Source: an uncultured bacterium (lineage in GTDB: Bacteria; Auribacterota; Erginobacteria; Erginobacterales; Erginobacteraceae). From it: a stretch of DNA of 64,000 nucleotides. Below, one piece after another: positions 2,362 through 49,231 of this stretch; the stretch's first letter is position 1, and every line of letters starts with the position of its first letter. Both the position numbers and the translations under genes were made by a program. The stretch lies in NCBI GenBank assembly GCA_964465735.1, contig CAYXKT010000002.1:472-64471 (forward strand), read 5' to 3'. The notes beneath the pieces were generated by a model. It was not told the origin of the DNA, made no database searches, and saw nothing but the letters and a program-made list of their open reading frames with translations.

Positions 2362-2454
2362 AACCGGTAATTCGGACTCCGGTCCGGAATCCTATCAAAG
2401 CATTTCGTTGGTTTTATTAACTAATGTCTGGACGTAAACCCGATATCACGGAGA

Positions 2455-2565
2455 GTCTGTCGTCGCAAGAAACGAAGTCACGGGGCAATCTCATCACAAA
2501 ATAAACAGATTGTTTCGTCGTCCCTCCTCGTAATGACCTGGTTTTTGAGATTTCCGTTCAGAACC
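2455..2565 (+). repeat. Intergenic nested-hairpin repeat element, copy B (full length)
   Basis: tctgtcGTCGCAAGaaACGAAGtca...TCTCATCACaaaATAAACAGATTGTTTCGTCGTCCCTCCTCGTAATGACCTGGTTTTT...CGTTCAGAACC. Inverted pairs CGCAAG/CTCGTAATGAC-type and ACGAAG/CTTCGT around a conserved loop of about 23 nt. Confidence 0.6.
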
Positions 2566-2695
2566 TAACTAAACTTACTCTTTGAAGCTGGTTAAAACCT
2601 TTTCCCACTTCTTCTCACCGTCACAATATCAGTTCGTCACCACCGGTTTCATCCTTTCATAAAACTTTTGACAGTACCCCCGCTAAGTTTGCCGG

Positions 2696-4774: not shown

Positions 4775-4894
4775 GGTATCCTCAGCTTGACTTAAAGAAT
4801 GACTGAAAATACAATCAGTCAGTAGTGGCCTGAACCGCTCGTCAGCAAAAGAATATACTATAGCGACTGAACGAAAACCTAAAATCTCACAGGC

Positions 4895-5004
4895 TCTGTC
4901 ATTGCGAGGGACAAAGTGACGAAGCAGTCTCATCACCAGATAAACAGATTGCTTCGTCGTCCCTCCTCGCAATAACCTGGTTTTCGGGGTTTTCGTTCCG
5001 GCAC
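4895..5004 (+). repeat. Intergenic nested-hairpin repeat element, copy C (full length, best-conserved stems)
   Basis: TCTGTCATTGCGAGGGACaaagtGACGAAGCAgTCTCATCACcagATAAACAGATTGCTTCGTCGTCCCTCCTCGCAATAACCTGGTTTTCGGGGTTTTCGTTCCGGCAC. Stems CATTGCGAGGGAC/GTCCCTCCTCGCAAT and GACGAAGCA/TGCTTCGTC. Confidence 0.65.
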
Positions 5005-10691: not shown

Positions 10692-13001
10692 TCAGCCCGT
10701 CTTCTTTTGGCTCTTTTTTATCATTCCCAGGACAAAGACGATCAGGATCGCCGCCACCATTCCGATCCAGAACAGGGATGTCCCCGGATGGAGGCCGAAC
10801 CGCGCCACCTGGTAGAAGAGGGTCGAGGTCAGCCAGGCCAGGCCCGAAAGGTAAAGGGCGCTGAAGAGCGTCCACTGCCAGTTCAGCTCCCGGTAGACGG
10901 CGGCGATGGCAGCCACGCAGGGCATATAGAGCAAAATCATCAGGAGATAGGCGTAGGCCCCCGCCCGGCCGTCGAACCGCCTCGTCAGGGCCGAGGGGGT
11001 CGAGGTTTCGACCTCCAGTCCCGCGGCGGCTTTATCCAAACTGCCGTATTCCTCAACTTCCGCCCCCAGCAGTCCGGAGACCGAGAAGGGCAGGGTCAGC
11101 TCCGCCAGCGCGACCGGGATTGTCGCGAACGACTCCCCGATTCCTCCCCAGAAGTCGAAATTTTCTCCTTCGCCGGCCGCCGCTTCATCCGGACCGGCGT
11201 CGAGCCGGGAGTAGAGCGCGTCGAGCGTCCCGATCACCGCTTCCTTGGCGAAGATCCCGGTGAAGATGCCGACCGCGGCCGGCCAGTTGGATTCCTTCAT
11301 ACCCATCGGCTGAAATATCGGGACGATCCCCTTCCCGATCGCGCTCAGGATCGAGTTCTCGCTGTCCTCATTCCCGAAGGAACCGTCCGGGCCGAGGGAG
11401 TTGAGAAAGTTCAGGACGATCACCACCAGGATGATGACTTTCCCGGCCCGGAGCATAAACGCCTTCAGCCGGTCCCAGGTATGAAACAGGATCCCCCGGA
11501 GGGCGGGGATATGATAGGGCGGAAGTTCCATCAGGAAGGCGGAGGGTTTCCCCTGTAAGACCGTCCGGTTGAGCAGAACCCCGGTCAGGACGGCGAGAAC
11601 GATCCCCGCCAGGTAGAGCGAGAGCACCACCCAGCCCCCGATCCCGGGGAAGAACGCGGCGGCGAAGAGCGCGTAGACCGGCATCCTCGCCCCGCAGGAC
11701 ATAAAGGGGTTCATCATAATCGTCATCACCCGGTCCTTTTCACTCTCCAGCGTCCGGGTGGCCATAATCGCCGGGACGTTGCAGCCGAAACCGATCAGCA
11801 TCGGGACGAAGGATTTTCCCGGCAGGCCGATCGCCCGCATCAGCCGGTCCATCACGAAGGCGGCCCGCGCCATATACCCGGAGTCCTCCAGAAGGGAGAG
11901 GCAGAGGAAGATGAAGAAGATCGGCGGGATGAAGGTGGCCACGGTCTGGATCCCCCCGCCGATACCCCCGGCCAGCAGGGTGACCAGGAACCCGGGCGCG
12001 CCGATTTTCTCCAGGAGATTTCCGAAGCCATCGACAAAGATGGTCCCGGCGAAGCCGTCAAAAAAATCTATGAAACAGCCGCCGAGGTTGATGGTGGCCC
12101 AAAAGGTGAAGTACATCGCCGCCAGGAAGATCGGGATCCCTAAAAATCGGTTCAGAACCACCCGGTCGATAACGTCGCTCACCGTTTTGCGGACAACGTC
12201 CTTGCGGTCCACCGCCTTGCGGCAGACCGCGCTGATAAATCCGTAGCGACTGTCGGCGATGACGATATCGGTGTCCTCCCCGTTAACAGCCTCGATCCTC
12301 TTCCGGAGGCCGGGGACTATTTCCCGAACCGCCGCCGGAACCGCGAACTTTCCGGGATCGATATCCCCCTCCAGCAGCTTGACCGCCAGCCAGCGGGGGT
12401 CAAACTCCCTCCCCGCCGGATCGGCCGGAAGCCGGGCGATGATCTCCGTTATCGCCTCCTCGACCTCGGGGGGGTAGTAGATCTCCACCGAGGAGACCGG
12501 CCGGTCTTTTAGGCCTCGGTTGACGGCCGATTTCAGTTCGTCGATCCCCTCCCGCCGGGAGGCGACTATGGGCACCACCGGGCAGCCCAGAAGCCCGGCC
12601 AGCTCGTCCACCTTGATCTTGAGGCGCTTGACCCGGGCCAGATCGACCATATTCAGGGCGATCACCATCGGCACCTTCATCCCGATCAGCTGGGTGGTCA
12701 GGTAGAGGTTCCGCTCCAGGTTGGAGGCGTCAACGATGTTGACGATCAGCTCCGGCCGGTCCTGGAGGATATAATCGCGGGCGATCTCCTCGTCGAGCGA
12801 CGAGGTCGAGAGAGAATAGATCCCCGGGAGATCGACGACCTCGATCTCTTGGCCGTCGCGGGAATAGTTGCCGCTCTTGCGCTCGACGGTCACCCCGGGC
12901 CAGTTGCCGACCCGCTGCTTGCCGCCGGTCAGCGCGTTGAAGAGCGTGGTCTTGCCGCAGTTGGGGTTGCCGGCGATACCGATTCTGTATTTTTTGCTCA
13001 T
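10692..13001 (-). CDS. feoB: Ferrous iron transporter FeoB
   Basis: 769 aa. N-terminal G-domain motifs GNPNCGKTTLFNALTG and DLPGIYSL, followed by the polytopic membrane domain. GGGAGG ribosome-binding site 9 nt upstream. 4-nt overlap with feoA. Confidence 0.95.
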   Translation of the reverse strand: MSKKYRIGIAGNPNCGKTTLFNALTGGKQRVGNWPGVTVERKSGNYSRDGQEIEVVDLPGIYSLSTSSLDEEIARDYILQDRPELIVNIVDASNLERNLYLTTQLIGMKVPMVIALNMVDLARVKRLKIKVDELAGLLGCPVVPIVASRREGIDELKSAVNRGLKDRPVSSVEIYYPPEVEEAITEIIARLPADPAGREFDPRWLAVKLLEGDIDPGKFAVPAAVREIVPGLRKRIEAVNGEDTDIVIADSRYGFISAVCRKAVDRKDVVRKTVSDVIDRVVLNRFLGIPIFLAAMYFTFWATINLGGCFIDFFDGFAGTIFVDGFGNLLEKIGAPGFLVTLLAGGIGGGIQTVATFIPPIFFIFLCLSLLEDSGYMARAAFVMDRLMRAIGLPGKSFVPMLIGFGCNVPAIMATRTLESEKDRVMTIMMNPFMSCGARMPVYALFAAAFFPGIGGWVVLSLYLAGIVLAVLTGVLLNRTVLQGKPSAFLMELPPYHIPALRGILFHTWDRLKAFMLRAGKVIILVVIVLNFLNSLGPDGSFGNEDSENSILSAIGKGIVPIFQPMGMKESNWPAAVGIFTGIFAKEAVIGTLDALYSRLDAGPDEAAAGEGENFDFWGGIGESFATIPVALAELTLPFSVSGLLGAEVEEYGSLDKAAAGLEVETSTPSALTRRFDGRAGAYAYLLMILLYMPCVAAIAAVYRELNWQWTLFSALYLSGLAWLTSTLFYQVARFGLHPGTSLFWIGMVAAILIVFVLGMIKKSQKKTG

Positions 13002-13940: not shown

Positions 13941-13965
13941 AAAAAAAATCCCGGCCGGCTCACTT
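13941..13965 (-). terminator. Possible weak intrinsic terminator downstream of fur
   Basis: The minus strand reads GAGCCGGCCGGGATTTTTTTT: a short GC palindrome CCGGCCGG followed by a T8 run directly after the fur stop (13960). Confidence 0.35.
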
Positions 13966-14388
13966 TCGGCACTCAGCACAGATCCCCCGTATCCCCAACC
14001 GGTGTTCCAGAGGCTGGAAATTGAATTTGTCGCAGACACTCTGCTGGAGCCGCTCAATCTCGTCATTCCTGAACTCATAGACTCTTCCGCACTTCACGCA
14101 AACCAGGTGATCGTGATGCTCGTGACCGTAGGTATGCTCGTAGGTGACGTTCCCCCGGCACATAACGGCCTCCTTGGCCATCCCGCTCTCGAGGAGCAGG
14201 GGGATGAACCGATAGATCGTCGGCATCGAGACCCTCTCCCCCACCGCCTTCAGCCGGTCAAAGAGATCCTCCACGGTGAAGTGGTGGTGAATCTCAAACA
14301 CTTCCCGCAGGAGAATCCTTCTCTCGGGGGTGAACTGCAATCCCCGCGACTTGAGAAAGGCGCCAAATTTATCTTCTGGGGCATCCAT
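13960..14388 (-). CDS. fur: Fur-family transcriptional regulator (ferric uptake regulator)
   Basis: 142 aa. DNA-binding helix region TPERRILLREVFEIHHHFTVEDLFDRL. Metal sites HTYGHEHHDHLVCVKCGRV and CAEC. Sits upstream of the feo genes. Confidence 0.85.
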   Translation of the reverse strand: MDAPEDKFGAFLKSRGLQFTPERRILLREVFEIHHHFTVEDLFDRLKAVGERVSMPTIYRFIPLLLESGMAKEAVMCRGNVTYEHTYGHEHHDHLVCVKCGRVYEFRNDEIERLQQSVCDKFNFQPLEHRLGIRGICAECRK

Positions 14389-18883: not shown

Positions 18884-19777
18884 TTGACAATTCGGGGTCC
18901 GTTCTCCTATTATACAAGTATGAAAGATATTTCTGTCATTATACCGGCTTACAACGAAGAGGCGGGGATCGGGCAAGTGCTGGCGGAGGTGGAGGAAGTT
19001 ATGCGGGGTAGCGGACTTGACTTCGAGATCATCGTGGTCAACGACGGGTCGACCGACCGGACAGCGGAGATTGTCCAGAAGACCGGAGCGGTTCTCCTGG
19101 AGCAGCCGGCCAACCGGGGCTACGGGGCCTCGCTGAAGCTGGGGATCCATCGGGCGAAGTTCGAACGGGTCCTGATCCTGGACGCCGATGGAACCTACCC
19201 GCCGGAAGCGATCCCCCGGTTGCTGGAAAAAGCCGATGACTTCGAGATGGTAGTGGGGTCCCGAACCGGGGAGAACGTTGCCATCCCGGCCTTCCGGCGG
19301 TTCCCCAAATGGCTGCTGAAGAAGCTGGCGGATTACCTGGTGGGGATGAAGATACCCGACCTCAACTCCGGGCTGCGGATCTTCCGGAAGTCGGCGGCGG
19401 AAAAATTTCTTCCCATCCTCCCCGACGGCTTCTCCTTCACGACCACGATCACGGTCGCCTTCCTTTCCAGCAGTCTTCCGGTACACTATGCCCCGATCGA
19501 CTACTACAAGCGTTCCGGGCGTTCCAAGTTCCGCCCGCTTCAGGATACCCTCAATCTTTTAAACCTGATCATCCGGACCAGCCTCTACTTCAACCCCCTG
19601 AAGATCTTCGTCCCTGCCGGCACCTCCCTGCTGGTGGCCGGGTTGGCCCTTCTGGTCCACCGGCTGATCGCCGGGGGGGGAGGGATGGTAACCACGGTGG
19701 TATTGCTGATGGCCGGACTCCAGCTCCTCGCCCTGGGGTTGCTGGCCGACCTGATTGATAAAAGATCCTCCCAATGA
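18884..19777 (+). CDS. GT2 polyprenyl-phosphate glycosyltransferase (ArnC/Dpm1/GtrB-like, membrane-anchored)
   Basis: ISVIIPAYNEEAGIGQVL, IIVVNDGSTD, LDADGTYPPE, and two C-terminal TM helices. The start is either the TTG at 18884 (GAGGAAG 11 nt upstream) or the ATG at 18920 (MKDISVII). Confidence 0.8.
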   Translation: MTIRGPFSYYTSMKDISVIIPAYNEEAGIGQVLAEVEEVMRGSGLDFEIIVVNDGSTDRTAEIVQKTGAVLLEQPANRGYGASLKLGIHRAKFERVLILDADGTYPPEAIPRLLEKADDFEMVVGSRTGENVAIPAFRRFPKWLLKKLADYLVGMKIPDLNSGLRIFRKSAAEKFLPILPDGFSFTTTITVAFLSSSLPVHYAPIDYYKRSGRSKFRPLQDTLNLLNLIIRTSLYFNPLKIFVPAGTSLLVAGLALLVHRLIAGGGGMVTTVVLLMAGLQLLALGLLADLIDKRSSQ

Positions 19778-21195
19778 AGGTTCTTCTGATCAACCCGCCC
19801 CGGGAGAATGAACTGACCGGGAACAATCCGGCCCTGATCGACGAAAGCCGGGGATATAACCCACCCCTGGGTCTGCTTTATCTGGCCGGCTACCTGGAAG
19901 CAAAAACCTCTTATCAAGTCGTGATCTGCGACGCGCAGGTTGAGGAGATCTCCTACCCGCAACTGGGAGAGCGGATCCGGGAGGCCGCGCCCGACCTGGT
20001 CGGACTGACCGCGATGACCTTCACTCTCCTTGACGTGATCAAAACCGCTCGGCTGGTCAAGGAAATCTCCCCTTCCCTGCCGGTGATGGTCGGCGGGGTC
20101 CACGCCTTTCTCTACCCGGAGGAGACCGTTAACCTCCCTGAGATTGATTATGTCTTGAGCGGTGAGGGAGAAGAGAGTTTCGCCCTTCTCCTGGACCGGC
20201 TGGAGAATCAGGGCGACCTCAATACCGTTCCCGGCCTGACCTACCAGAAAGACGGCCGGATCTGTTCCAGCCCAGCCCCGCCGCTCTGCGCCGATCTCGA
20301 CTCCCTCCCCTTCCCCGCGCGGCAGCTCACTCCCTGGCAAAAATACAGTTCGGTGATGGCCAAACGGCAGCCGATCACCACGATGTTCACCAGTCGGGGC
20401 TGTCCCTTCCGCTGCTCCTTCTGCGCCCGCCCCCACCTGGGAAAACAGTTCCGCTACCGTTCGGCTGAAAACGTGGTCGATGAGATGGAAGAGTGCGTAA
20501 AGTTGGGGATCCAGGAATTTCTGATCTACGATGACACCTTCACCGTCAACCGCGACCGGGTGCTGGCGGTCTGTGAGGAGATCCGCCGCCGGAAGCTGGC
20601 GATCGGCTGGGATATCCGGGCGAGGGTGGATTGTGTGGACGAAGAGATGCTAAAGCAGCTTAAAGCCACCGGTTGCGAACGGATCCACTACGGGGTGGAG
20701 GCGGGGACGGAGAAGATTTTGCGGGTCCTGAACAAGGGAATCACCAGGAAACAGGCTCGGGATACGATCGCCCTGACCCGGCAGATCGGGATCGAGACTC
20801 TGGCCTACTTTATGATCGGATCCCCAACCGAGACCCGGGAGGATATCCTGACAACAATCCGGTTCGCGCTGGAGCTGAAACCGGACTTCGTGCATATTAC
20901 TATCCTCTGTCCCTTTCCAGGGACCGCAATCTATGAGCAAGGACTAAAGGAAGGCGTCTTCTCCCGGGACCACTGGCGGGATTTCGCCGCCAACCCGACC
21001 CCCGACTTCTCCCCGCCTTACTGGAATGAGCTTCTCTCTGATACCGAGCTACAGGAACTCTTGCAATTAGCCTATAAAAAATTCTATACTCGCCCGTCTT
21101 ATCTCCTGAAAAGAGCTCTCCAGGTCAGATCTCTGCGGGAGTTTAAAACCAAGTTCAATGCCGGCTGGAAAATTTTCCGGATGAAAAATCGGTAA
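19774..21195 (+). CDS. Cobalamin (B12)-binding radical SAM enzyme (class B)
   Basis: 473 aa. N-terminal B12-binding/Rossmann-like region. CxxxCxxC radical SAM motif in TSRGCPFRCSFCARP. ATGA overlap with the upstream GT2. Confidence 0.8.
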   Translation: MKVLLINPPRENELTGNNPALIDESRGYNPPLGLLYLAGYLEAKTSYQVVICDAQVEEISYPQLGERIREAAPDLVGLTAMTFTLLDVIKTARLVKEISPSLPVMVGGVHAFLYPEETVNLPEIDYVLSGEGEESFALLLDRLENQGDLNTVPGLTYQKDGRICSSPAPPLCADLDSLPFPARQLTPWQKYSSVMAKRQPITTMFTSRGCPFRCSFCARPHLGKQFRYRSAENVVDEMEECVKLGIQEFLIYDDTFTVNRDRVLAVCEEIRRRKLAIGWDIRARVDCVDEEMLKQLKATGCERIHYGVEAGTEKILRVLNKGITRKQARDTIALTRQIGIETLAYFMIGSPTETREDILTTIRFALELKPDFVHITILCPFPGTAIYEQGLKEGVFSRDHWRDFAANPTPDFSPPYWNELLSDTELQELLQLAYKKFYTRPSYLLKRALQVRSLREFKTKFNAGWKIFRMKNR

Positions 21196-21416: not shown

Positions 21417-23474
21417 ATGGCGAAGAAACGGAAAATACGGCCGGAGGCGACGACCCCGGCAGCGATATCTTTTAAGTACCGGCCGACGGCAAAGAAAATT
21501 ATCACCGGCCTCTTTCTGCTGGCAGTGGTTCTCTCTTTCTTTCTCCGATTCTACGACCTGGAACTTAAGCCACTCCACCACGACGAGGGGGTCAACTCCT
21601 GGTTCTTGCTCAACCTGAAAGCTGACTTCCCCGGCGGCTGGACCTACGACCCCTCAAACTATCACGGGCCCTTCCTCTTCTTCACCCATATCATTCCCCT
21701 GGCCATTTACGAAAGCGTCTTTTCGCTACGCTGTATGGTGGCCCTCTTCGGCTCCCTGACCATCTGGCTCCTCTGGCCGCTGCGGCGAAAAATCGGCCGG
21801 GTCGGGGTAACGGCGGCCGCCTTTCTCCTCGCCATCTCTCCCTCCCATCTCTTCTTCTCCCGGACCAACATTCACGAAATTTACCTGGTCTTTTTCACCC
21901 TGGGGACAGTGGTCGGGATTGTCCGACTCTGGGAGACTAAGAAACCAATTTATCTGATCCTGGCCGTCGCCTGCTGGGCCTGGGTGATCACGGTCAAGGA
22001 GACCTACATCATCACCGCCGGGTCCTGGTTCTGGGCCGCAGTCGGGACCTACATCTGGTTCTCCATCACCCGCCGGAATGACGAAATTCCACCCAAATAC
22101 GCGGCCCGAGAAATGGGGGGGTGGCTGAAGACTCACTATGCGGCGATCTGGTTAGCGGCGGGAGTCTTCGTCCTGATTATCATCATCTATTATTCCTCCC
22201 TCTTCACCAGCCTGAAAGGAACCACCAGCGATCTGATCGAAAGCCTGATGATCTGGCAGAAGACCGGGACCAAGGGTGCCGGACACGAGAAACCTTTCTT
22301 TTACTGGTGGTGGCTGCTGCGGGACTTTGAGCTACCGATCTTCATCATCGGGGTCCTCGGACTCGCTCTGGCGACAGTCCGGAGAAACGCCTTTGCCGTC
22401 TTCTGTGTCATCTGGGCGGTAGTGATGTTTTTAATCCATTCCTCAATCGCCTACAAGACCCCCTGGCTGGCGCTTAACTTTATGCTTCCCCTGGTTCTCC
22501 TGGCCGGTTTCTTCTGCGAGCAGCTTTATCGTTCTCTGAGAAAGACCCCGGTACTGGCCGGGGCGGCCGGAGTCATCTTCGCCGGTGGACTTCTGGCCTG
22601 GGGGACCGGGATCAGCCGGACAGTCAATTTCATCGAATACGACGATGATCGCCATATGATCGTCTATTCCCAGACCCGACGCGACCTCAACGACCTGGTC
22701 GCGGCGATCGAGGAGTACGCCCACGAGCAGGGCCAGGGCTACACCACCGAGATCAAGATCGTCTCCGACGAGTACTGGCCGCTCCAGTGGTATTTAAGGG
22801 AATATCCCCGGGTAGGTTTCTGGGGAAAGGTGCTCCCCGATTCCGATGGACCGATCGTGATCGGCCGTTCCACCACCCGGAACGAACTGGAAAAAGTTCT
22901 CCAGGACACCTACTCCTCCGAACTCTACAGTGTCCGGCCGGGGCTGGATCTTTATCTCTACACCCGCCTCCACCGGGGGAGAGTCCCGAAAGAAGAACTC
23001 CCGGCCCCGGAGCCGATGGGGATAACAAAGGCTGATCTCCAACCGGGACTGGTCGGCAGTTACTTCAACAAGGTTAATCCGGTCGGCCGGGCCGACGATA
23101 CCCGGATTGAGGATCAGTTTGAATTTCACTATAACAGCCCGGCGGAGACCAGGGCCGGGCTCGGGTTTTCGCCGCCCTTAAGCATTCTCTGGGAAGGAAT
23201 AATCGAGATCCCCCGGGCAGGGACCTATGTTTTTGCCACCGAGTCCGACGACGGCTCCTGGATCTTTATCGGCGAGCGGCAGGTAGTCGATAACGGCGGG
23301 GCCCACGCAATGCAGTATCGCTCCGGAGAGATCACCCTGGAGGAAGGGTTTTATCCACTGAAGATCAAGTACTTCGAAGTCGGCGGCGGGGCGGTCCTCA
23401 AGGTCTTCTGGTCCCCCCCGGGGGAGAGCGAGGAGCCGATCCCTCCCGGGCGCCTCTTCCACCAGAAACGGTAA
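21417..23474 (+). CDS. Polytopic membrane protein (GT-C-like, LKPLHHDEGVNSWF motif) fused to a C-terminal PA14 carbohydrate-binding domain
   Basis: 685 aa. About 11 TM helices in the N-terminal 400 aa. The C-terminal 145 aa (GLVGSYFNK...DDGSWIFIGERQVVDNGGAH...GFYPLKIKYFEVGGGAVLKVFWSPPG) matches the PA14 domain pattern. The PA14 part spans about 23040-23474. Confidence 0.6.
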   Translation: MAKKRKIRPEATTPAAISFKYRPTAKKIITGLFLLAVVLSFFLRFYDLELKPLHHDEGVNSWFLLNLKADFPGGWTYDPSNYHGPFLFFTHIIPLAIYESVFSLRCMVALFGSLTIWLLWPLRRKIGRVGVTAAAFLLAISPSHLFFSRTNIHEIYLVFFTLGTVVGIVRLWETKKPIYLILAVACWAWVITVKETYIITAGSWFWAAVGTYIWFSITRRNDEIPPKYAAREMGGWLKTHYAAIWLAAGVFVLIIIIYYSSLFTSLKGTTSDLIESLMIWQKTGTKGAGHEKPFFYWWWLLRDFELPIFIIGVLGLALATVRRNAFAVFCVIWAVVMFLIHSSIAYKTPWLALNFMLPLVLLAGFFCEQLYRSLRKTPVLAGAAGVIFAGGLLAWGTGISRTVNFIEYDDDRHMIVYSQTRRDLNDLVAAIEEYAHEQGQGYTTEIKIVSDEYWPLQWYLREYPRVGFWGKVLPDSDGPIVIGRSTTRNELEKVLQDTYSSELYSVRPGLDLYLYTRLHRGRVPKEELPAPEPMGITKADLQPGLVGSYFNKVNPVGRADDTRIEDQFEFHYNSPAETRAGLGFSPPLSILWEGIIEIPRAGTYVFATESDDGSWIFIGERQVVDNGGAHAMQYRSGEITLEEGFYPLKIKYFEVGGGAVLKVFWSPPGESEEPIPPGRLFHQKR

Positions 23475-23616
23475 CTCAAAGCGAACCTTTCGGGGCCCGC
23501 CAGGAAAGTTGATCTCACTTGACACCGGGACTGAAGATCGGGTATCTTTTAATATCTATGGTTGTTTGCCTGAAACCAATTCCGGAGCCCCCACATTCGG
23601 GGAAAAGGAGGAACAG

Positions 23617-24213
23617 ATGCGGATAAAATCATCGAACAGGGCCAAGCGGTTGGCAACAGTTATCCTGACCGCGATCTTTTTCTCCATCGGACTGGGGGGG
23701 TGCCAGGAAACGGGACCGGAGGCTACAACCATTGATGTCGAGAAAATTATCGACTTTACCGGGGTCATCTCGATTACCCTGCCTTCCGGGGAGACCACCC
23801 GGCTCGCTGTCGGCCAGACCCTGATCCCTCTTCCCGCGGATACTCTGGTCGAGATAGTCTCCGGAGAGTCCACCGGGATGCTGGCGGGAAAGATCATTCT
23901 CCTCCGGGAAGATCAGGTTGCCCGGATCATCCGGCCGGGGGTGACCGCCCACCACGTGATCCGTTTCACCGGGGAGTTGAAGATCGTCCTCCCCGACGGC
24001 ACCGTGATCTTCGTTAAGGAGGGGGATCCTCTGCCCATCCTCCCTGCCGGAACCCGGATCGAGGTGATCTCGGGCGAACTGGTAGTACTCTGGGGCGACG
24101 AGCGGATTACCCTGGTCGCCGGCAATGTCGCCTGGATCGAGTTGCGGCCCAAAGACCGACTGTTGGAACTGGAGAGAGGCGACATCAGCCCGGCCAGCCC
24201 GTTTAGACCTTAA
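23617..24213 (+). CDS. Lipoprotein with an internal duplication (two repeats of about 50 aa)
   Basis: Start ATG 23617 with AAGGAGG 6 nt upstream (the ORF-track start at 23509 is less likely). Lipobox LGGC in MRIKSSNRAKRLATVILTAIFFSIGLGGC. Repeats I.LP.G....G..L..LPA.T..E..SGE occur twice. Confidence 0.5.
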   Translation: MRIKSSNRAKRLATVILTAIFFSIGLGGCQETGPEATTIDVEKIIDFTGVISITLPSGETTRLAVGQTLIPLPADTLVEIVSGESTGMLAGKIILLREDQVARIIRPGVTAHHVIRFTGELKIVLPDGTVIFVKEGDPLPILPAGTRIEVISGELVVLWGDERITLVAGNVAWIELRPKDRLLELERGDISPASPFRP

Positions 24214-24236: not shown

Positions 24237-25430
24237 TTGAAACAGTTCAGATCCTTGAACGCTATTCTCCGAGGTGGGTTGGCTCTGGGACTCTTGCTTC
24301 TGCCGGCCCTTTCGGCTCTCGCCCTGGAAATCGGTTCGCCAGGACACGGCATCAGTCAGGGAAGCCTGGTCATCCATCCCCGGATTCAACTCCAGGGAGA
24401 ATATGACGACAATATCTTCCTCACCGACCGGGACCGAAAACAGGACCTGATCGGTATCCTGGTCCCGGGGGTAACCTTGGAATTCCCCTGGGAGAATAAT
24501 CTCCTGCTCCTCGACTACCAGGCCTTGCTCTATTATTATCGGGACTATCCTGATCAGAACCATCAGGACCACCGCCTCCAAGGTCGGATCAGCCTGCTGG
24601 CCGCCCCCTTCTCCCTGAAGGCGGAAGACACCTTCCTCAAAACTTCCTCTCGGGAAAATACCGACTACACCGACCGAGTAGAACGAATTGAGAATATTGC
24701 CCGAGCGGAGCTGATATATTTGGCAAATAAATTCCAGGTCCAGGGGGGATACGAAAATTATCTCTACCGCTACGATGAGCGACCCTACCGTCCCTACGAC
24801 CATACCGAACACCGGGGAATCCTGACCGGGTTTTATCAGGCAGCGCCCAAGACCAAGGCCCTTCTGGAGTACACCCACTCCCGGATCATCTACCGCGATT
24901 ACAAGGATCGCAACGGATACTACAATGAAGTCCGGGCCGGATTTATTGGGGAGATCACCTCCAAGCTGACCGGGACGGCCAAGATCGGTTACCAGGAGCG
25001 GCGCTACCGGGAAGATTCAATCTGGGACGACTATCGGGGGATCGTCGGCTACGCCCTGCTGGAACAGGTTTTTTCGCCTGAGCACGACCTCCGCCTGGCC
25101 TGGGAACGTTCGGTCCAGGAATCAACTTTTTCCGGCAACAGCTATTACCTGCTCAACCGGGCCTGGATCTATTACAGCCGCCAACTCACCCATAAGATCC
25201 GCGGCTTTGCCCGCCTCCAGTACAGCAACTACCGCTACCCCGAAACTTCCTTGGACCGCGGCGGGAAAAGACGGGATAATACCTGGGAACCGGAGATCGG
25301 GGTCAGGTACCAGGTTCAGCCCTGGCTGGCGGCCGAATTCAAGTACCGCTACCGAAACCGCGACTCCAACTGGCCGGATAAGGATTATTTGAATAACCGG
25401 TTTTACCTGGAAATATCGGCGGCGTATTGA
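24237..25430 (+). CDS. Outer-membrane beta-barrel protein, possibly associated with polysaccharide export
   Basis: 397 aa. Signal peptide ...LLLLPALSALALE. Tyr/Arg-rich alternating strand pattern. C-terminus ...LEISAAY ends in an aromatic residue. Located immediately upstream of wza/wzc-like genes. Confidence 0.5.
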   Translation: MKQFRSLNAILRGGLALGLLLLPALSALALEIGSPGHGISQGSLVIHPRIQLQGEYDDNIFLTDRDRKQDLIGILVPGVTLEFPWENNLLLLDYQALLYYYRDYPDQNHQDHRLQGRISLLAAPFSLKAEDTFLKTSSRENTDYTDRVERIENIARAELIYLANKFQVQGGYENYLYRYDERPYRPYDHTEHRGILTGFYQAAPKTKALLEYTHSRIIYRDYKDRNGYYNEVRAGFIGEITSKLTGTAKIGYQERRYREDSIWDDYRGIVGYALLEQVFSPEHDLRLAWERSVQESTFSGNSYYLLNRAWIYYSRQLTHKIRGFARLQYSNYRYPETSLDRGGKRRDNTWEPEIGVRYQVQPWLAAEFKYRYRNRDSNWPDKDYLNNRFYLEISAAY

Positions 25431-25486
25431 CCCTGAATTTTGGCCCTGAAGCGATTTCAGTCCGGACGATAAAAAAGGAGCACAGA

Positions 25487-25540
25487 CGTTCCTGTCTGTG
25501 GAAGCTGGACCACAGGCAGGAACGTCTGCTACTATGGCCG
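25487..25540. repeat. 19-bp near-perfect inverted repeat (hairpin) between the OMP gene and the Wza-like gene
   Basis: CAGACGTTCCTGTCTGTGG (8-nt spacer) CCACAGGCAGGAACGTCTG, one mismatch. Not followed by a T-run. Confidence 0.6.
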
Positions 25541-25620
25541 CCGGTCAGCCTCCTGATGGGTGAATCCGGAAAATATTTATTTTGCCCGGACAATTTGTTT
25601 TCATTATATGACATCAGAAA

Positions 25621-26427
25621 ATGCTATTCTTACGGAACTACAGGACCAACCGGATAAATCGAGAACTTGGATTTATGTTTTTTAAAAAAAAGTCAATTGA
25701 TACGGCTCCCCAGATCCGGCAGGGAATATTCCTTAATCGGACGGGTTTTGTCTTCACGGCATTGTTGATTACCCTCAGTGGCGCTCCTTTTTTCCTGGGA
25801 GGCTGCGGAGGTACTCCGGAGCCCCAGCCGGGTTCCGAAACCATCGATGACAGGAACTTTTTTTACTCGCGGCCGGACGAAGCGGCCGGGGTGAAGCCAA
25901 AAGCCGGGGAGATTGCCGAACCGGTGGACGAGGGGGAGAGCTACCTGATCAATCCCCACGATCTGCTGGATATCTCCGTCCTCGGGGAGAGCGATCTCTC
26001 GCTCACCGTCCGAGTCTCGGAACGGGGTCAGATTTCCTTTCCTCTCCTGGGAGAAGTCCGGGCGGCGGGCTATTCCCCCCTGCAACTCGAACGACAGCTG
26101 GAAGAACTGCTGGGAGCGGATTTCCTGGTCTCTCCCTCGGTCAATGTCACCGTCAAAGAGTCCGGAACGATCTCGGTCCTGGGTCAGGTCAATAAGCCGG
26201 GGGCCTTCGAGATCAAGGGCCGCCTCACCGTCACCCGGGCGATCGCCCAGGCCGGCGGGTTGACCAGTATTGCCAGTCCTAACGGGACCCGTCTGATCCG
26301 CAGGTATAACGGCCGGGAGGAGACCATCCTGATCCGTTTAAACGATATCCTCAAGGATGGAGACCTGGCCCACGACCTCCCCCTCCGCCCCGGGGATTTG
26401 ATCGTGGTCCCGGAAAGCTTTTTTTAA
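25621..26427 (+). CDS. Polysaccharide export protein, Wza/EpsA family (Poly_export + SLBB domains), lipoprotein
   Basis: Lipobox LGGCGG. Poly_export-like YLINPHDLLDISVLGESDLSLTVRVSERGQISFPLLGEVRAAGYSPLQLE. SLBB-like ISVLGQVNKPGAFEIKG...LIRL...GDLIVVPE. An alternative start lies at the ATG of about 25675. Confidence 0.8.
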   Translation: MLFLRNYRTNRINRELGFMFFKKKSIDTAPQIRQGIFLNRTGFVFTALLITLSGAPFFLGGCGGTPEPQPGSETIDDRNFFYSRPDEAAGVKPKAGEIAEPVDEGESYLINPHDLLDISVLGESDLSLTVRVSERGQISFPLLGEVRAAGYSPLQLERQLEELLGADFLVSPSVNVTVKESGTISVLGQVNKPGAFEIKGRLTVTRAIAQAGGLTSIASPNGTRLIRRYNGREETILIRLNDILKDGDLAHDLPLRPGDLIVVPESFF

Positions 26428-26435
26428 AGGAGATT

Positions 26436-28478
26436 TTGATGGACAGGTTTCACGACATCAACACCGGCCTGCGGGAAAGAATCTATATTATTCACCGCCG
26501 GAGATGGGTCCTGATCACCGTCCTGGTGATTATCTTCACCGTAACCGCGATCGCCAACTTCGCCGCCACTCCGCTCTACCAGGCCGCCAGCCGAATCCGG
26601 ATCGAACCCCAGATGCCTGATGTCGTTCCCTTCCAGGATCCTCGCGCGATCTCCTCCGGACGACAGCTTGATTATTACAATACCCAGTACCGGATGCTGA
26701 AGTCCCCGTCACTGGCCAAGCTGGTCCGGGAAAATCTCCCCATTGAGGCAGCGGAAGTTTTAAGCCCCGACCGGCTGCTTTCGATGGTGGAGATCAAGCC
26801 GATCACCCAGAGCGAGCTGGTCGATATCGTGGCGATCGGACCCGACCCCGAACTGGCGGCCCTGGTCGCCAACATCTGGGCCGACCAGTTTATCCGGATG
26901 TCGATCCAAGCCAAGTTCGAATCGGTCCAGACCGCCCTCTCCCAGTTAAACCGGCAACTGGAAGAACAGAACCAGAAAGTCATCGACGCCCAAACGGAAC
27001 TGATGGACTACAAGGAACGGGAACGGATCATCTCCCTGGAGGACATCGAGAAACAGTTAAGTCAACTCTCCGGGGACTATTCCGCGATCCGCCAGCAAGC
27101 CGAGGAGAAGGAGCTTCATCTCCAGCACCTGGCCAAGTACCAGGGTCAGGATCTCTCACTGGAGAACTTCCCCCAGGTCCGCTACCATTCAATTATTCTC
27201 CAGTTGAGAAACCGCCTGGTCCAGCTCCAGGCCACCCGGGGGGAATATTCCCAGCGCTACCGGGAGCGCCACCCGAGGATGATCCAGCTCGAAGCCGAGA
27301 TCGCCACCGTCGAGGCCGGGCTCCAGGAAGAGATCGGCAAAATCGTCGAAGGATTAAGGAGGGAGCGGGACCTGGCCCGGGATCAGGAGGAGATCCTCCG
27401 GCGGGAGCTGGAGAAACAGAAAACTTTATTCTTCACGATGGAAAGAAAAATCAAAGATATCGAGGGACTAAGTGCCAAGGTGGACATTGACCGGGAAGTC
27501 CAGCAGGCCCTCCTCTCCCGGGTCAGCGAGGCCACGATGACCAAGGGGATCGAGATCACCAATATCCAAGTGGTCGATTACGGTGAAGTCCCCCGCCAGC
27601 CGTTCAAACCCCGAAAGACTTTCAATCTGATCCTCTCCCTGATAATCGGGACCGGAGGTGGGATAGCGGCGATCTTCTTTCTGGAGAATCTCGACACCAG
27701 CGTCAAAACTACGGGCGAAGCTAAAAAGATTCTAAAAATCCCCTTTCTTGGCACCATCCCCCTTTATTCCCAGGTCAGCATCCGCAACGGCCTCTCCATC
27801 CGCAACGGCCTCTCCCCCCTGGAGATAATGAAAAACCCAATGGGATTGATCCCGGAAGCCTACCGGGCGATCCGGACCGGGATCTATTACGCTTCTTGCG
27901 ACTCCTCTCCCCGGACCATCCTGGTCACCAGCTCACTTCCCCAGGAAGGGAAGACCGACGTCTCCACTCTCCTCGCCCTCTCCCTGGCCCAGGGACAGGA
28001 GCGGGTCCTCCTGATCGACGCCGATCTGAGAAAACCCCGGATCGGGAAAATTTTTGGTGTTAACCGGGAACAACCGGGCTTAAGCACGATCCTTTCCGGC
28101 CGGGCCGGGCTCGACGAAGCGGTCCGGCCGACCGATTTTCCGGGCCTCGATTTCATCCCCGGAGGGCGGATCCCCCCCAACCCCGCCGAACTGATCAACT
28201 CCCGGCGTTTCGGTGAACTGCTGGAGGAAGCGCGGGGGAAGTGGGACCGGATCATCCTCGACTCCCCTCCCCTCCTCTCGGTCACCGACGCGGTGATTAT
28301 AGGCCGGATGGTCGATGGAGTCGTAATGGTCCTCCGCGCCGGCGAGACCCGGGGGAAGATCGCCGCTTACTGCCGGGAAAAGCTGGAGCACGTCAACGCC
28401 CGGATGATCGGGGTGATCCTCAACGGCGCCGACATCCACCGGGGCGAGAACTATTACTACCAGTCCTACTATGCTTGA
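26436..28478 (+). CDS. Polysaccharide co-polymerase / BY-kinase (Wzc/EpsB-like, fused Wzz domain plus tyrosine autokinase)
   Basis: 680 aa. N-terminal TM plus periplasmic coiled-coil Wzz-like region, then a second TM. Walker A' TSSLPQEGKT, Walker B VLLIDADLR. C-terminal Tyr cluster YYYQSYYA. AGGAG ribosome-binding site. Confidence 0.8.
   Translation: MMDRFHDINTGLRERIYIIHRRRWVLITVLVIIFTVTAIANFAATPLYQAASRIRIEPQMPDVVPFQDPRAISSGRQLDYYNTQYRMLKSPSLAKLVRENLPIEAAEVLSPDRLLSMVEIKPITQSELVDIVAIGPDPELAALVANIWADQFIRMSIQAKFESVQTALSQLNRQLEEQNQKVIDAQTELMDYKERERIISLEDIEKQLSQLSGDYSAIRQQAEEKELHLQHLAKYQGQDLSLENFPQVRYHSIILQLRNRLVQLQATRGEYSQRYRERHPRMIQLEAEIATVEAGLQEEIGKIVEGLRRERDLARDQEEILRRELEKQKTLFFTMERKIKDIEGLSAKVDIDREVQQALLSRVSEATMTKGIEITNIQVVDYGEVPRQPFKPRKTFNLILSLIIGTGGGIAAIFFLENLDTSVKTTGEAKKILKIPFLGTIPLYSQVSIRNGLSIRNGLSPLEIMKNPMGLIPEAYRAIRTGIYYASCDSSPRTILVTSSLPQEGKTDVSTLLALSLAQGQERVLLIDADLRKPRIGKIFGVNREQPGLSTILSGRAGLDEAVRPTDFPGLDFIPGGRIPPNPAELINSRRFGELLEEARGKWDRIILDSPPLLSVTDAVIIGRMVDGVVMVLRAGETRGKIAAYCREKLEHVNARMIGVILNGADIHRGENYYYQSYYA
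27780..27815 (+). repeat. In-frame 18-bp tandem duplication (ATCCGCAACGGCCTCTCC x2) inside the Wzc-like gene
   Basis: Encodes SIRNGL-SIRNGL in the linker before the kinase domain. Perfect direct repeat. Confidence 0.7.
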
Positions 28479-28607: not shown

Positions 28608-29579
28608 TTGGAGAACGGGTATTTGCAGATGGAAACCACTGACGATAGCTTGAACCGGGAAGAAACCCCATACCAATGCCCGTATTTTGATAACCGGGAT
28701 TGTCCACGTTATTGTCTGGATTTTATTTTTTACCAGAACCCGGAAACAACGACGGCCCTGGGAAGGTGTCCCCGGTTCGAAGATTCATACGTTCTCTTCT
28801 CCACCCCCGCCACCGGTTTGAAGGATTACTACGATCCGAAAAGATTGCAGGAGTATTGTTCCTACTACGAACCATTCCGCCGGAGGCGTTTTCACGAGAT
28901 ATTCCGGATCTCCACCCTGCGAAATTTCCCCGGAAACTCCGCTCTTGATATCGGCTGCGGTTTCGGCTGGTTCTTGGAAGAGTTGCATAGTCGGGGATGG
29001 AAACGATTGGTCGGCATAGATTACTCTCCCGTCAGCCACCGGGACAACGGGAAAGGTCTGGAGATCATCAACGAGAAGTTCAGTCCAACGCTGGAACTGG
29101 AGGAAAGATTCGACCTGATCATCCTCTCCAATGTCCTGGAACATCTCTGGCAGCCGCTGGATTGCCTGCGCTGGATCAGGAACCACCTCCGCCAAGAGTC
29201 CGGCGGTCTCCTGCTCCTGGTAGTCCCCACGGCGGACGGGATGCTGATGCGGTTATCCCACCGGTTTATCCAAGCTTTCCCCCGCCTCTCCGATGGAATG
29301 GTTGAGGATATATACCAGATCGGCAGCACGATGGGGCACCGGGTCCTTTACACTACTGCCGGGGTGATCAAGCTTTGCCGGATGGCCGGACTGACCGTCC
29401 TGGACCGGGAAGAAACCCCGATCATAGACGCCGGAAACATCAGGCAACGAATGTTGATCGAAAAGGACCACCTGACCGGGTCGGATCACCTGAAGGCTTT
29501 CCTGCTGGAGCGACTGTCCCGGCTGGCCTCCCGGAGAGGGGAGAACGATGAACTGGCTCTGGTCTTAACCCCCGCTTGA
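28608..29579 (+). CDS. Class I SAM-dependent methyltransferase with an N-terminal Cys-rich region
   Basis: SAM motif I LDIGCGFGWFLEEL. Post-I acidic residue in GIDYSP. Motif LIILSNVLEHL. N-terminal CPYFDNRDCPRYC. Confidence 0.7.
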   Translation: MENGYLQMETTDDSLNREETPYQCPYFDNRDCPRYCLDFIFYQNPETTTALGRCPRFEDSYVLFSTPATGLKDYYDPKRLQEYCSYYEPFRRRRFHEIFRISTLRNFPGNSALDIGCGFGWFLEELHSRGWKRLVGIDYSPVSHRDNGKGLEIINEKFSPTLELEERFDLIILSNVLEHLWQPLDCLRWIRNHLRQESGGLLLLVVPTADGMLMRLSHRFIQAFPRLSDGMVEDIYQIGSTMGHRVLYTTAGVIKLCRMAGLTVLDREETPIIDAGNIRQRMLIEKDHLTGSDHLKAFLLERLSRLASRRGENDELALVLTPA

Positions 29580-30340
29580 TGATCAACGTGATGAAACCGA
29601 AACAGGATATACAGGCGGAACAGGAGTTTTTCGCGGGTCCGATGGAGAACTTTGAACCCTTCGACTGGCGGGCCAAGGAACTGCTTTACTTCTGGCTCTC
29701 ACGGCGAAACCGTCCCGCCACTGACAGCCTGATCCTCGACCTGGCCGCGGGCAGCGGCAACTTCACCAAAGTCCTCCTGGCCCGCGGTCACCGGGTGGTC
29801 GGGTTCGACATCGCCCACAACCTGATCCGCACCCTCCGCGAACGGACCGGCCTGCGGCAGGTCTTCGTCGGGAGAGCGGAGGAGATCGCCCTGGATTCCG
29901 ACTCTTTTGACCTGGTGACGATGTGCGGGGTTCTCCACCATTTCCCGGACATCCTGCCCCTCCTGGAGGAGATAGCCCGGGTACTGAAACCCGGTGGGTC
30001 GTTCTTCGCCATCGAGCCCAACCTCCATAACCCCTGGATGTTTCTCTTCCGGTCCCCCTCCAGCCCGCTGTACATACCCGAAGGAGTGACCCGGAACGAA
30101 CGGCCGCTGAGCCGGCGGGAACTGGATACCGCCCTGGCCCGGGTCTTCCCCCGCCGGCTGGTGGAGGGCATCTGTGGGGTTACCTTTCTCAAGTCGGGGA
30201 CGGTTCTCGATCCCCTGCTCTCGGGTTTTAACCTCTATTCCCGCCTGATGGGCAAACTCCTACCCCGGTCCCGCTGGGGCGAGTTCCTGATCTGCTCCGG
30301 CTGGAAGGGATCACAACCAACCATCGCCGACCGGATATGA
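29576..30340 (+). CDS. Class I SAM-dependent methyltransferase
   Basis: ILDLAAGSGNFTKVL, VVGFDIAHN, FDLVTMCGVLHHF, LKPGGSF. ATGA overlap with the upstream methyltransferase. Confidence 0.7.
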   Translation: MMINVMKPKQDIQAEQEFFAGPMENFEPFDWRAKELLYFWLSRRNRPATDSLILDLAAGSGNFTKVLLARGHRVVGFDIAHNLIRTLRERTGLRQVFVGRAEEIALDSDSFDLVTMCGVLHHFPDILPLLEEIARVLKPGGSFFAIEPNLHNPWMFLFRSPSSPLYIPEGVTRNERPLSRRELDTALARVFPRRLVEGICGVTFLKSGTVLDPLLSGFNLYSRLMGKLLPRSRWGEFLICSGWKGSQPTIADRI

Positions 30341-41178: not shown

Positions 41179-42594
41179 TCAATTCCACCAGTACCGCTTC
41201 AGCCAGAGCAATTCCGGACGGCAGGCCGTCCATAACAGTCCCAGGTAAATCAAGCATACTACAACCGAAACGGCCGGGGAAGGCAATCCGGAGTAAACCA
41301 GAAGGCCCCAGCCGACCAGTCCGGCCGAAACCGCCAGGACCAGCGGCTTGACCAGTAAGGCCGGTTGAAGCTGCTGCAAACGGAGAAGGATAGCCAGCAG
41401 GTATCCAACCCCGGCCAGCTGGGAGAACCCCAGGTTCAGCGCCATCAGGTAAATCGGAGACGGTCCGTCTTCCGCGCCCGCCAGACGGTAAATCCCCAGG
41501 GATATCAGGAGAAAGATCGCGATCTCCATCAGGCGGCCCCAGGCGACGTGGAGCGGATCCTTGACGGCGAAAAACACCTGCTGAATGAACACGGCGGGGA
41601 CGATCACGACCAGGTAAAGACTGAAGAAGGGAAGCGCTCGAGCGGTGGGGACCCACCGGGCTCCGAGAACCAGAACGATCAGGTCCCGGAGAAAGAAGAT
41701 CGCGGCCAGGGCAAAAAAGGAACCCAGGGCCAGGTTGAGAAATATCCCCAGGTTGATCAGCGAATCCAGCCGGCGGAGATCGCTCTTGAGCCGGTTGATC
41801 AGGGAAAAGGCGAACCGGGCGTTGATCTCCCTGACCAGCCCGACGGCCGAAGAAACAATCATCAGGCCCCGCTCGTAAGCTCCCACGAAAGCCACCGGGA
41901 CCATCAACCCCAGGATCAGCTTATCCAGGGACTGCATCATCGTCGCGCAGATCCGGACAACAAACTTTTTCGAACCGTAAACCAGCACCACCCGGAGAAC
42001 TTCTTTTTCCCAGCCAACCCCGTATTCCCAGCGGCAGCATTTGAAGAAGATCACTGTCTCCAGAAGCACCCGGACGTACATCCCGGCCACCAGGCTGTAA
42101 ACCCCGGCGCCGGCCAGGGCCAGCCCCAGCGTGGCCAGGATACCGGCCGTCCGTGCGAGGAAATGCACGATCTCGGTCGTCTTGAAATCAAGGTTTCTCT
42201 CGATGACGAACTGGAAAATCAGGCTGAAAAAAGTTAGGATATGCCCGGCGATCAGCAGGAGATATATCCGGGAGATCTGCTCGCCGTAAACCCGGCTGAC
42301 GATCAACGCCCCGGGTACGGTCAGAACCGCGTAGGCGGCGGCCTGGAGAATCGTAATTCCGAGAACGTTTCTCTCGATGTTTTTCACCTCCTGGAACTGG
42401 ATTACGCAATGAGCGAAACCGAAGGAGATAAACATCGCGATAAACCCCAGAGAGGACTCGGCCAGGGCGAACACCCCGAAGACCTCCGGGGAGAGGATCC
42501 GCATAATCAGCAGGTGGAAGAAGAGAGAGACAACAAATTGCCCCTGTCTGCCGATCAAAATCCACTTAACACTCTGCTTGATCTTGGCTTTCAC
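41179..42594 (-). CDS. Wzx-like polysaccharide flippase (MOP superfamily)
   Basis: 471 aa with about 12-14 TM helices. N-terminus MKAKIKQSVKWILIGRQGQFVVSLFFHLLIMRIL, as in polysaccharide biosynthesis protein family flippases. Confidence 0.7.
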   Translation of the reverse strand: MKAKIKQSVKWILIGRQGQFVVSLFFHLLIMRILSPEVFGVFALAESSLGFIAMFISFGFAHCVIQFQEVKNIERNVLGITILQAAAYAVLTVPGALIVSRVYGEQISRIYLLLIAGHILTFFSLIFQFVIERNLDFKTTEIVHFLARTAGILATLGLALAGAGVYSLVAGMYVRVLLETVIFFKCCRWEYGVGWEKEVLRVVLVYGSKKFVVRICATMMQSLDKLILGLMVPVAFVGAYERGLMIVSSAVGLVREINARFAFSLINRLKSDLRRLDSLINLGIFLNLALGSFFALAAIFFLRDLIVLVLGARWVPTARALPFFSLYLVVIVPAVFIQQVFFAVKDPLHVAWGRLMEIAIFLLISLGIYRLAGAEDGPSPIYLMALNLGFSQLAGVGYLLAILLRLQQLQPALLVKPLVLAVSAGLVGWGLLVYSGLPSPAVSVVVCLIYLGLLWTACRPELLWLKRYWWN

Positions 42595-49194: not shown

Positions 49195-49231
49195 ATTCTC
49201 GGGTTTTCGCGCCGCGGAAGGGGGATCGACC

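Follow-up and report, generated by a model that had tools for sequence, protein, structure and literature searches.

A candidate periplasmic glycosyltransferase of the TIGR03663 family with a C-terminal PA14 domain, and its linked family 2 glycosyltransferase gene, in an uncultured Auribacterota bacterium

The window analysed here is a stretch of 64,000 nucleotides (nt) from an uncultured bacterium of the Auribacterota (contig CAYXKT010000002.1). It is a Wzx/Wzy-type exopolysaccharide (EPS) locus headed by three genes, which encode a family 2 glycosyltransferase (GT2), a radical S-adenosylmethionine (SAM) enzyme, and a membrane protein of the glycosyltransferase C fold (GT-C) that ends in a PA14 domain (Table 1). 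The open reading frame (ORF) of the last of these, the GT-C-PA14 gene, opens with ATG and encodes 685 amino acids (aa). Its start codon and gene model are sound, because eight relatives found by database search at 76–96% identity are 684–687 aa long, with 100% coverage. The protein passes the NCBIfam hidden Markov model (HMM) TIGR03663 ('flippase activity-associated protein Agl23') with 226 bits against a cut-off of 126.25, over aa 33–464 and profile positions 4–431 of 435; the model is of the 'subfamily' kind and is not an equivalog. Pfam finds PMT_2 (PF13231, a GT-C family) at aa 85–205 (E = 3.7e-8; 34.2 bits, gathering threshold 26.1) and PA14 (PF07691) at aa 542–677 (E = 6.8e-17; 62.1 bits, gathering threshold 24). 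The curated HMM assigns the protein to TIGR03663, its fold and the motif in its first loop assign it to GT-C, and its PA14 domain is bona fide. A preliminary description, made from the letters of the sequence, had proposed such a GT-C-like polytopic domain with a C-terminal PA14 domain, and the matches confirm it. The span that it gave for PA14 (23040-23474) agrees almost exactly with the Pfam match, and the two strings that it quoted, DDGSWIFIGERQVVDNGGAH and GFYPLKIKYFEVGGGAVLKVFWSPPG, are present in the translation.

A confident AlphaFold2 model from an alignment of 46 sequences (mean predicted local distance difference test score 88.5; predicted template modelling score 0.84) and hydropathy together give 11 transmembrane (TM) helices, the number estimated earlier: aa 23–45, 85–117 (kinked), 128–148, 154–174, 177–193, 197–217, 241–259, 306–322, 325–343, 349–374, and 378–406. 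The short helix 85–97 is either a juxtamembrane helix or the first half of the kinked TM2, and the count is 11 under both readings because this helix is too short to span the membrane alone. Of the 62 residues that form the assigned cytoplasmic loops, 20 are lysine or arginine, against 10 of the 98 that form the periplasmic loops, and the N-terminal 22 residues alone hold seven. By the positive-inside rule, this enrichment gives an N-in, C-out orientation, which puts loop 1 and PA14 on one side of the membrane. This orientation places the C-terminal 279 aa including PA14, loop 1 (H54-H-D56-E57), and the α/β domain of aa 407–540 in the periplasm. The two tests to which the preliminary description had tied its proposal, an HMM match to PF07691 and a periplasmic PA14 domain, both came out in its favor. 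The α/β domain belongs to the family core, and matches to PA14-less relatives from Acidobacteriota extend into it, as far as about aa 517. No cytoplasmic loop is longer than 23 aa, and the protein is without a cytoplasmic domain.

The membrane domain has the GT-C fold. In structural comparison, however, ALG12, ArnT, and AglB score as well as the protein O-mannosyltransferases (PMTs, GT39) do, and identity to Pmt1/2/4 is 11–16%. Because these enzymes score equally, the fold does not discriminate between acceptor classes.

Conservation is concentrated on the periplasmic face. Across the 46-sequence alignment 36 residues are invariant, and 33 of them are situated in periplasmic loops or within one residue of the point where a TM helix reaches the periplasm. 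The set includes R44, P52, H54, D56, E57, the stretch Y77...H83-G84-P85, R149, E154, K194-E195-T196, H290, and Y346-K347-T348-P349-W350. H54, D56, and E57 are invariant in the 46 sequences and in a set of 25 that includes eight PA14-less Acidobacteriota proteins. Across 148 representatives of 50%-identity clusters these three are conserved to 90% or more, and K194, E195, Y346, K347, and W350 are invariant. The acidic pair D56-E57 lies in the LKPLHHDEG motif to which the preliminary description had drawn attention, at aa 50–58. The motif is in loop 1, assigned to the outside, and GT-C enzymes have their acidic residue or residues in the first extracytoplasmic loop. With its loop-1 acidic pair and basic residues, the arrangement looks like the pattern of an extracytoplasmic active site, and the conserved basic residues of the core could bind polyprenyl phosphate.

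The known ligands of PA14 domains are glycans rather than peptides. The closest solved relatives of the window PA14 are the polysaccharide- or sugar-binding PA14s of RsgI3, Lap, MpPA14, and Flo5, the nearest being that of the polysaccharide-sensing RsgI3. Its SDDGS motif, which holds the Asp-Asp pair associated with Ca2+-dependent carbohydrate binding by PA14 domains, aligns with DDG of RsgI3 and with ADDG of the sugar-binding PA14 of Lap. In 41 PA14s of the family, S610-D611-D612-G613-S614, N626, H630, and Y652-F653 are invariant, and G644, G658-A659, and W665 are invariant or nearly so, which exceeds the needs of fold maintenance and suggests a conserved ligand site. RsgI3, a single-pass anti-sigma factor of Clostridium thermocellum, and the RTX adhesins Lap and MpIBP do not carry their PA14 on a polytopic membrane domain, unlike the window protein. 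A six-frame search found no other PA14 domain in the 64-kb window. Kinship with RsgI3 raises the thought that the protein is a non-catalytic GT-C-like scaffold or sensor, whose PA14 senses extracellular polysaccharide while the membrane domain anchors it or signals; non-catalytic GT-C folds do exist (PIG-U/GAB1). We regard this as very improbable. There is no cytoplasmic signalling domain, only short loops, the conservation of the periplasmic face resembles an active site, and the gene is tightly linked to that of a donor-synthesising GT2, to which we now turn.

The GT2 is encoded 1.6 kb upstream of the GT-C-PA14 gene and has two C-terminal TM helices. Its matches in the Protein Data Bank (PDB) are ArnC (full length, E = 1e-22), the Dol-P-Man synthase (DPMS) of Pyrococcus furiosus, and GtrB (1.6e-14). 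Its best NCBIfam models are AglJ, a haloarchaeal Dol-P-hexose transferase (1.4e-28), ArnC, and PpgS, all below their equivalog cut-offs. From these matches it is a polyprenyl-phosphate glycosyltransferase, and it probably makes a lipid-linked sugar donor. The TTG codon that opens the longest GT2 ORF (18884) is the first hexamer of the region's best sigma-70-like promoter match (TTGACA-18-TATTAT, 11/12, 18884-18913), and alignments with ArnC begin at about aa 13 of this ORF; the more likely start is therefore ATG 18920, with a predicted promoter just upstream. The GT2 gene and the B12-binding radical SAM gene that follows it share 4 nt, and a gap of 221 nt precedes the GT-C-PA14 gene. The radical SAM enzyme passes no NCBIfam equivalog cut-off, its best models being BchE, HpnJ, and ApyD. 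A riboswitch or other RNA in the gap was considered and rejected, as Rfam has no match there or anywhere else in the window.

The association with GT2 extends well beyond this genome. A tblastn search of the loci L001–L083 found a GT2 homologue in 14 of 20 distinct PA14-bearing loci, but in only one of 62 PA14-less Acidobacteriota loci. In 12 of the 14 linked loci it is directly adjacent to the GT-C-PA14 gene or parted from it only by the radical SAM gene; of the six PA14-bearing loci without GT2, three end on the relevant side. The arrangement varies: GT2 lies upstream with the radical SAM gene between in loci of the Auribacterota/PVC group (L001, L005, L007–L009), immediately downstream in anammox bacteria and an Elusimicrobia metagenome-assembled genome (MAG), and immediately upstream in an Oligoflexia MAG. 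Precomputed Pfam annotation adds three loci (L084–L086) with GT2 14 nt, 4 nt, and 2.3 kb (behind a transposase) downstream. Across phyla, the GT2 link alone persists. A side observation concerns the Brocadiaceae locus L012, where a radical SAM homologue of 60% identity stands beside a GT2 of 49% identity at 1356-3625, about 6 kb from the GT-C-PA14 gene. The radical SAM identity is far above that of the GT-C protein (39%), which hints at strong constraint on, or transfer of, the GT2-radical SAM pair.

GT-C enzymes decorate surface glycans and proteins in all domains of life, and both their acceptor capture and the membrane crossing of monophosphate-linked donors are only partly understood. The parts described above fit the logic of the Arn and Gtr systems, with GT2 inside and GT-C outside, and transfer of the GT2's sugar is therefore proposed. 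On balance, we lean towards the view that the window protein is a periplasmic, polyprenyl-P-sugar-dependent GT-C glycosyltransferase whose PA14 domain holds the acceptor glycan, and that it forms a two-gene module with GT2. At the cytoplasmic face, GT2 (18920-19777) would load a sugar onto polyprenyl phosphate, and the B12-radical SAM enzyme encoded between the two may modify the lipid-linked sugar. Once in the outer leaflet, the lipid-linked sugar would be received by a GT-C site made up of invariant residues on the periplasmic side (D56-E57 in loop 1, R149/H153/E154, K194-E195-T196, H290, and Y346-K347-T348-P349-W350). From there the sugar would pass to the acceptor glycan, which the lectin-type PA14 domain at the C terminus would hold. 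Domain architecture, fold, topology, conservation, and gene linkage are established here; catalysis, donor, acceptor, and the binding of carbohydrate by PA14 are inferred. In Auribacterota the acceptor is most likely the EPS of the adjoining Wzx/Wzy/Wza/Wzc locus, which would be decorated in the periplasm in the Gtr/Arn style. The preliminary description had also allowed for a polymerase; this was dropped, as a separate Wzy_C protein is encoded in the window and nothing ties TIGR03663 to polymerisation.

Comparison with ArnC/ArnT and GtrA/GtrB/GtrC shows where the likeness ends. A GtrB/ArnC-like GT2 is encoded with a GT-C protein here too, but there is no GtrA or ArnE/F-type small flippase gene nearby, in the window or the examined loci, and for lack of a dedicated flippase the pair falls outside the three-component definition. 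GtrA (PF04138) is absent from the precomputed Pfam neighbours in L001, L003, and L084–L087, and in the 64-kb window no ORF of at least 80 aa has three or more hydrophobic segments, other than those of large proteins; a flippase gene elsewhere in the genome is possible. The B12-radical SAM gene is inserted between GT2 and GT-C, and in sequence the GT-C protein is only marginally similar to ArnT. Neither ArnT nor GtrC is known to carry a PA14 domain. Extracytoplasmic carbohydrate-binding-type modules on GT-C enzymes do have precedents, namely MIR in the PMTs and carbohydrate-binding modules (CBMs) in Emb and AftD. The mycobacterial GT-C arabinosyltransferases EmbA/B/C, AftA, AftB, and AftD differ from the window protein in the type of CBM, in size, and in TM number, and match it structurally more distantly than ArnT and the PMTs. 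A PA14 domain in the acceptor-binding role would be a variant rather than a new principle, and if the protein is a plain Gtr/Arn-like side-chain transferase, the result is a useful annotation and not a surprise.

Several points weigh against the proposed transferase. The similarity to solved GT-C enzymes is marginal: ArnT reaches E = 3.7e-4 with one profile and 0.09 with a 25-sequence core profile, and a phmmer search of the PDB with the core (aa 1–520) as single sequence returned nothing at E ≤ 10. D56 and E57 are for this reason equated with catalytic residues from their position only. At near-invariant PA14 positions the window protein and P0001, a relative of 96% identity, carry D619G, H646Y, and D654E, where 38 of 41 family members have D/H/D; this joint change might mean that a ligand or metal site has been lost or altered. 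Only in the Auribacterota lineage does the gene stand among EPS genes; in anammox bacteria and Elusimicrobia the neighbours are a type II secretion system, other PA14 proteins, and regulators, so the acceptor may not be EPS in general. Finally, the sole studied member of the family, Agl23 of Haloarcula hispanica, has been described as a flippase for hexose-P-dolichol; in proteoliposomes, purified Agl23 translocated Man5GlcNAc2-PP-Dol, and it rescues a yeast rft1 deletion (PMC11182771). The function of TIGR03663 is contested because this one member is called a flippase and not a transferase, yet the hallmarks of a transferase are found in the sequence and fold.

As the main alternative, the window protein might be an Agl23-type flippase or scramblase that moves the polyprenyl-P-sugar of GT2 outward, with the PA14 domain as a tether to the site of glycan assembly and the transfer left to another enzyme, such as one of the three other PMT_2 proteins encoded in the window. 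The family is named after Agl23, and the window protein passes its model by a wide number of bits. Agl23 works with a GT2 that makes polyprenyl-phosphate hexose (Agl22/Dol-P-hexose synthase; PMC11182771), and the window GT2 matches a Dol-P-hexose transferase model. Flipping is, moreover, otherwise unaccounted for, because no GtrA-type flippase is encoded near the pairs examined. The likeness to Agl23 is one of HMM family; the window protein is bacterial and extends beyond the TIGR03663 match with its PA14 domain, whereas the activity reported for Agl23 is flipping and not transfer. The flipping assay used a non-native substrate (PMC11182771), and the family model is a subfamily model. Why a scramblase would need an invariant acidic pair and about 30 invariant residues at the periplasmic face is not obvious, and a periplasmic lectin-type domain would be left without explanation. 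The original genetic paper on Agl23, by Lu et al. in 2020, reportedly speaks of 'utilization' of lipid-linked intermediates. We rate a flippase role as rather unlikely. The GT2 linkage and the periplasmic PA14 domain, with no separate flippase nearby, argue that the family acts on a periplasmic glycan.

The two activities could also reside in one protein. The GT-C domain of a TIGR03663 member would then not only flip the polyprenyl-P-sugar but also pass the sugar on to an acceptor that PA14 captures in the periplasm. The GT2 and GT-C-PA14 pair would be a two-component periplasmic glycosylation module, self-sufficient without GtrA, and the anammox paralogues described below could be S-layer O-glycosylation machinery. 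This combination is speculative, and we think it unlikely to be right. As a compact two-gene system, the pair makes the question of flippase, transferase, or both addressable.

A protein acceptor, in place of the glycan acceptor that we favor, has to be considered as well. The window protein would in that case be a PMT-like O-glycosyltransferase that uses polyprenyl-P-sugar to glycosylate Ser/Thr of secreted or S-layer proteins, with PA14 in the role of the lectin-like MIR domain of eukaryotic PMTs. PMTs likewise have eleven TM helices and a D-E pair in the first loop, and the Pfam match is to PMT_2. Large repeat proteins, probably of the cell surface, are encoded in the window (56051-63901). 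On the other hand, the match is to PMT_2 and not to PMT, PMTs carry MIR in a loop whereas the window protein has a C-terminal PA14 β-sandwich, other GT-C enzymes score equally in structural comparison, the gene sits in a polysaccharide export operon, and glycans rather than peptides are the known ligands of PA14 domains. Anammox bacteria with several PA14-GT-C paralogues have a heavily O-glycosylated S-layer protein, for which the Kuenenia S-layer paper names no glycosylating enzyme (PMC5088730). We consider O-glycosylation of proteins by the window protein improbable; the option carries most weight in anammox bacteria. The PA14-bearing proteins are candidate surface-glycan-modifying enzymes for the little-known bacteria of the PVC group and for anammox bacteria, and in the latter the heavily glycosylated S-layer and the matrix are important to granule formation during wastewater treatment.

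The preliminary description called the fusion an uncommon architecture. This is true among characterised proteins but not in sequence space; its account of domains and topology stands, and that of rarity, like that of polymerase function, does not. In a search of 5.8 billion proteins, nearly all of the 120 best matches have both PA14 and PMT_2. Among them are Ca. Erginobacter occultus of the Auribacterota (PVC group), at 85% identity, the anammox Brocadiales Brocadia, Kuenenia, and Anammoxibacter, at about 39%, and members of the Coatesbacteria and Elusimicrobia; several are automatically annotated by NCBI as 'TIGR03663 family protein' or 'flippase activity-associated protein Agl23'. Among the GTDB species genomes scanned, an Oligoflexia MAG also has the fusion, and there are many Acidobacteriota relatives that end at about aa 517 without PA14. 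A core-only search (aa 1–520) against 1.84 billion cluster representatives gave 4,205 clusters with E up to 1e-3, of which 734 reach 1e-30 or better. When the 147 closest 50%-identity cluster representatives were scored with a local PA14 HMM derived from alignment A1, 27 (18%) proved to end in PA14, in tandem in two. The nearest neighbour by core identity is also PA14-bearing for 22 of the 27 PA14-bearers, against nine of 115 PA14-less sequences, and in a crude neighbour-joining tree of the core the PA14-bearers are not one pure clade. Judged from these sequences, GT-C with PA14 is a recurrent, inherited subfamily feature that is rare only among characterised proteins. The literature gave no report joining a PA14 domain with a GT-C glycosyltransferase, and a mention of TIGR03663 was unrelated. 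The family and its automatic database annotation are already known; the GT2 linkage of the PA14-bearers is new.

In anammox genomes, PA14-bearing membrane proteins form local paralogue clusters. Further PA14 genes precede the GT-C-PA14 gene in L003 (1-5111), upstream of the match in L010 and L012–L016, and in L085 (5205-7790); their products are a PA14 protein of 801–861 aa and one with both PA14 and PMT_2 that is at least 824 aa long. In a Coatesbacteria MAG (L087, 5779-8004), the last 4 nt of a gene for a 741-aa protein of DUF2298, another large membrane-protein family, overlap the GT-C-PA14 gene, and a convergent downstream gene encodes 241 aa and has no Pfam match on record.

Table 1. Positions of the genes, domains, and motifs described in the text, in window coordinates.
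Feature	Position	Strand	Basis or remark
PMT_2 (GT-C) protein, 743 aa	130-2361	-	Pfam
758-aa protein, 8 predicted hydrophobic segments	2696-4972	-	no Pfam match
PMT_2 (GT-C) protein, 708 aa	6648-8774	+	Pfam
FeoB	10692-13001	-	few kb upstream of glycan locus
Fur-family regulator	13960-14388	-	few kb upstream of glycan locus
PMT_2 (GT-C) protein, 785 aa	14594-16951	-	Pfam
GT2 polyprenyl-phosphate glycosyltransferase, ArnC/GtrB/DPM1/AglJ-like	18884..19777	+	Pfam Glycos_transf_2 (1.1e-30)
B12-binding radical SAM enzyme	19774..21195	+	Pfam B12-binding and Radical_SAM
GT-C-PA14 gene, 685-aa TIGR03663/Agl23-family membrane protein	21417..23474	+	ORF, TIGR03663, PMT_2, PA14, AlphaFold2 model
Membrane domain, aa 23-406, 11 TM helices	21483..22634	+	
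Loop-1 motif L50-K-P-L-H-H-D56-E57-G58, at the position of the GT-C catalytic acidic motif	21564..21590	+	conservation, topology
Predicted periplasmic α/β domain, aa 407-540	22635..23036	+	TIGR03663 match to aa 464; invariant D409, Y417, P455, R507
PA14 domain, aa 542-677	23040..23447	+	Pfam PF07691
PA14 Asp-Asp motif S610-D611-D612-G613-S614	23244..23258	+	invariant in 41/41 PA14-bearing relatives
PA14 substitution codons, aa 619, 646, 654	23271-23273, 23352-23354, 23376-23378	+	
Probable lipoprotein, conserved, no known family	23509..24213 (likely start ATG 23617)	+	translation; signal ...FFSIGLGGC
EpsL-like outer-membrane β-barrel	24237-25430	+	Pfam, NCBIfam EpsL
Wza-like Poly_export/SLBB	25621-26427	+	Pfam
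Wzc-like Wzz/GNVR/P-loop	26436-28478	+	Pfam
SAM-dependent methyltransferase	28608-29579	+	Pfam; syntenic in L001
SAM-dependent methyltransferase	29576-30340	+	Pfam; syntenic in L001
Wzx	41179-42594		
Wzy_C protein	47716-49305		
FG-GAP proteins, 456-472 aa	50616-52037 and 52527-53900		
SBBP β-propeller and FG-GAP repeat ORF, 2,616 aa	56051-63901	-	

The rest of the EPS locus follows the three leading genes. In a relative of 80% identity, the order is kept from GT2 to a membrane protein that comes after the methyltransferases, and the order of the export genes (24237..28478) is kept in L001, L004, and L005. In the same three loci, homologues of the probable lipoprotein, 70–79% identical, occupy the same position; the gene has no Pfam or NCBIfam match, and its product contains two similar internal segments, ...LPSGETTRLAVGQTLIPLPADTLVEIVSGE and ...LPDGTVIFVKEGDPLPILPAGTRIEVISGE. 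Past the methyltransferases, family 4 glycosyltransferases (GT4s) and a carbamoyltransferase are encoded further along the window.

From the three further PMT_2 proteins of the window it follows that the organism has at least four GT-C paralogues within 24 kb; the three have 11–13 predicted hydrophobic segments each, and none has PA14. The ORF with SBBP and FG-GAP repeats is in the most GC-rich part of the window (0.65–0.66), with a sign change of GC skew; it and the smaller FG-GAP proteins are probable surface proteins. FeoB and a Fur-family regulator are encoded a few kb before the glycan locus in the window, and in the Elusimicrobia locus L086 FeoB and a FeoA-domain gene (1-2401) are found about 5.6 kb from the GT-C-PA14 gene; this is probably a coincidence.

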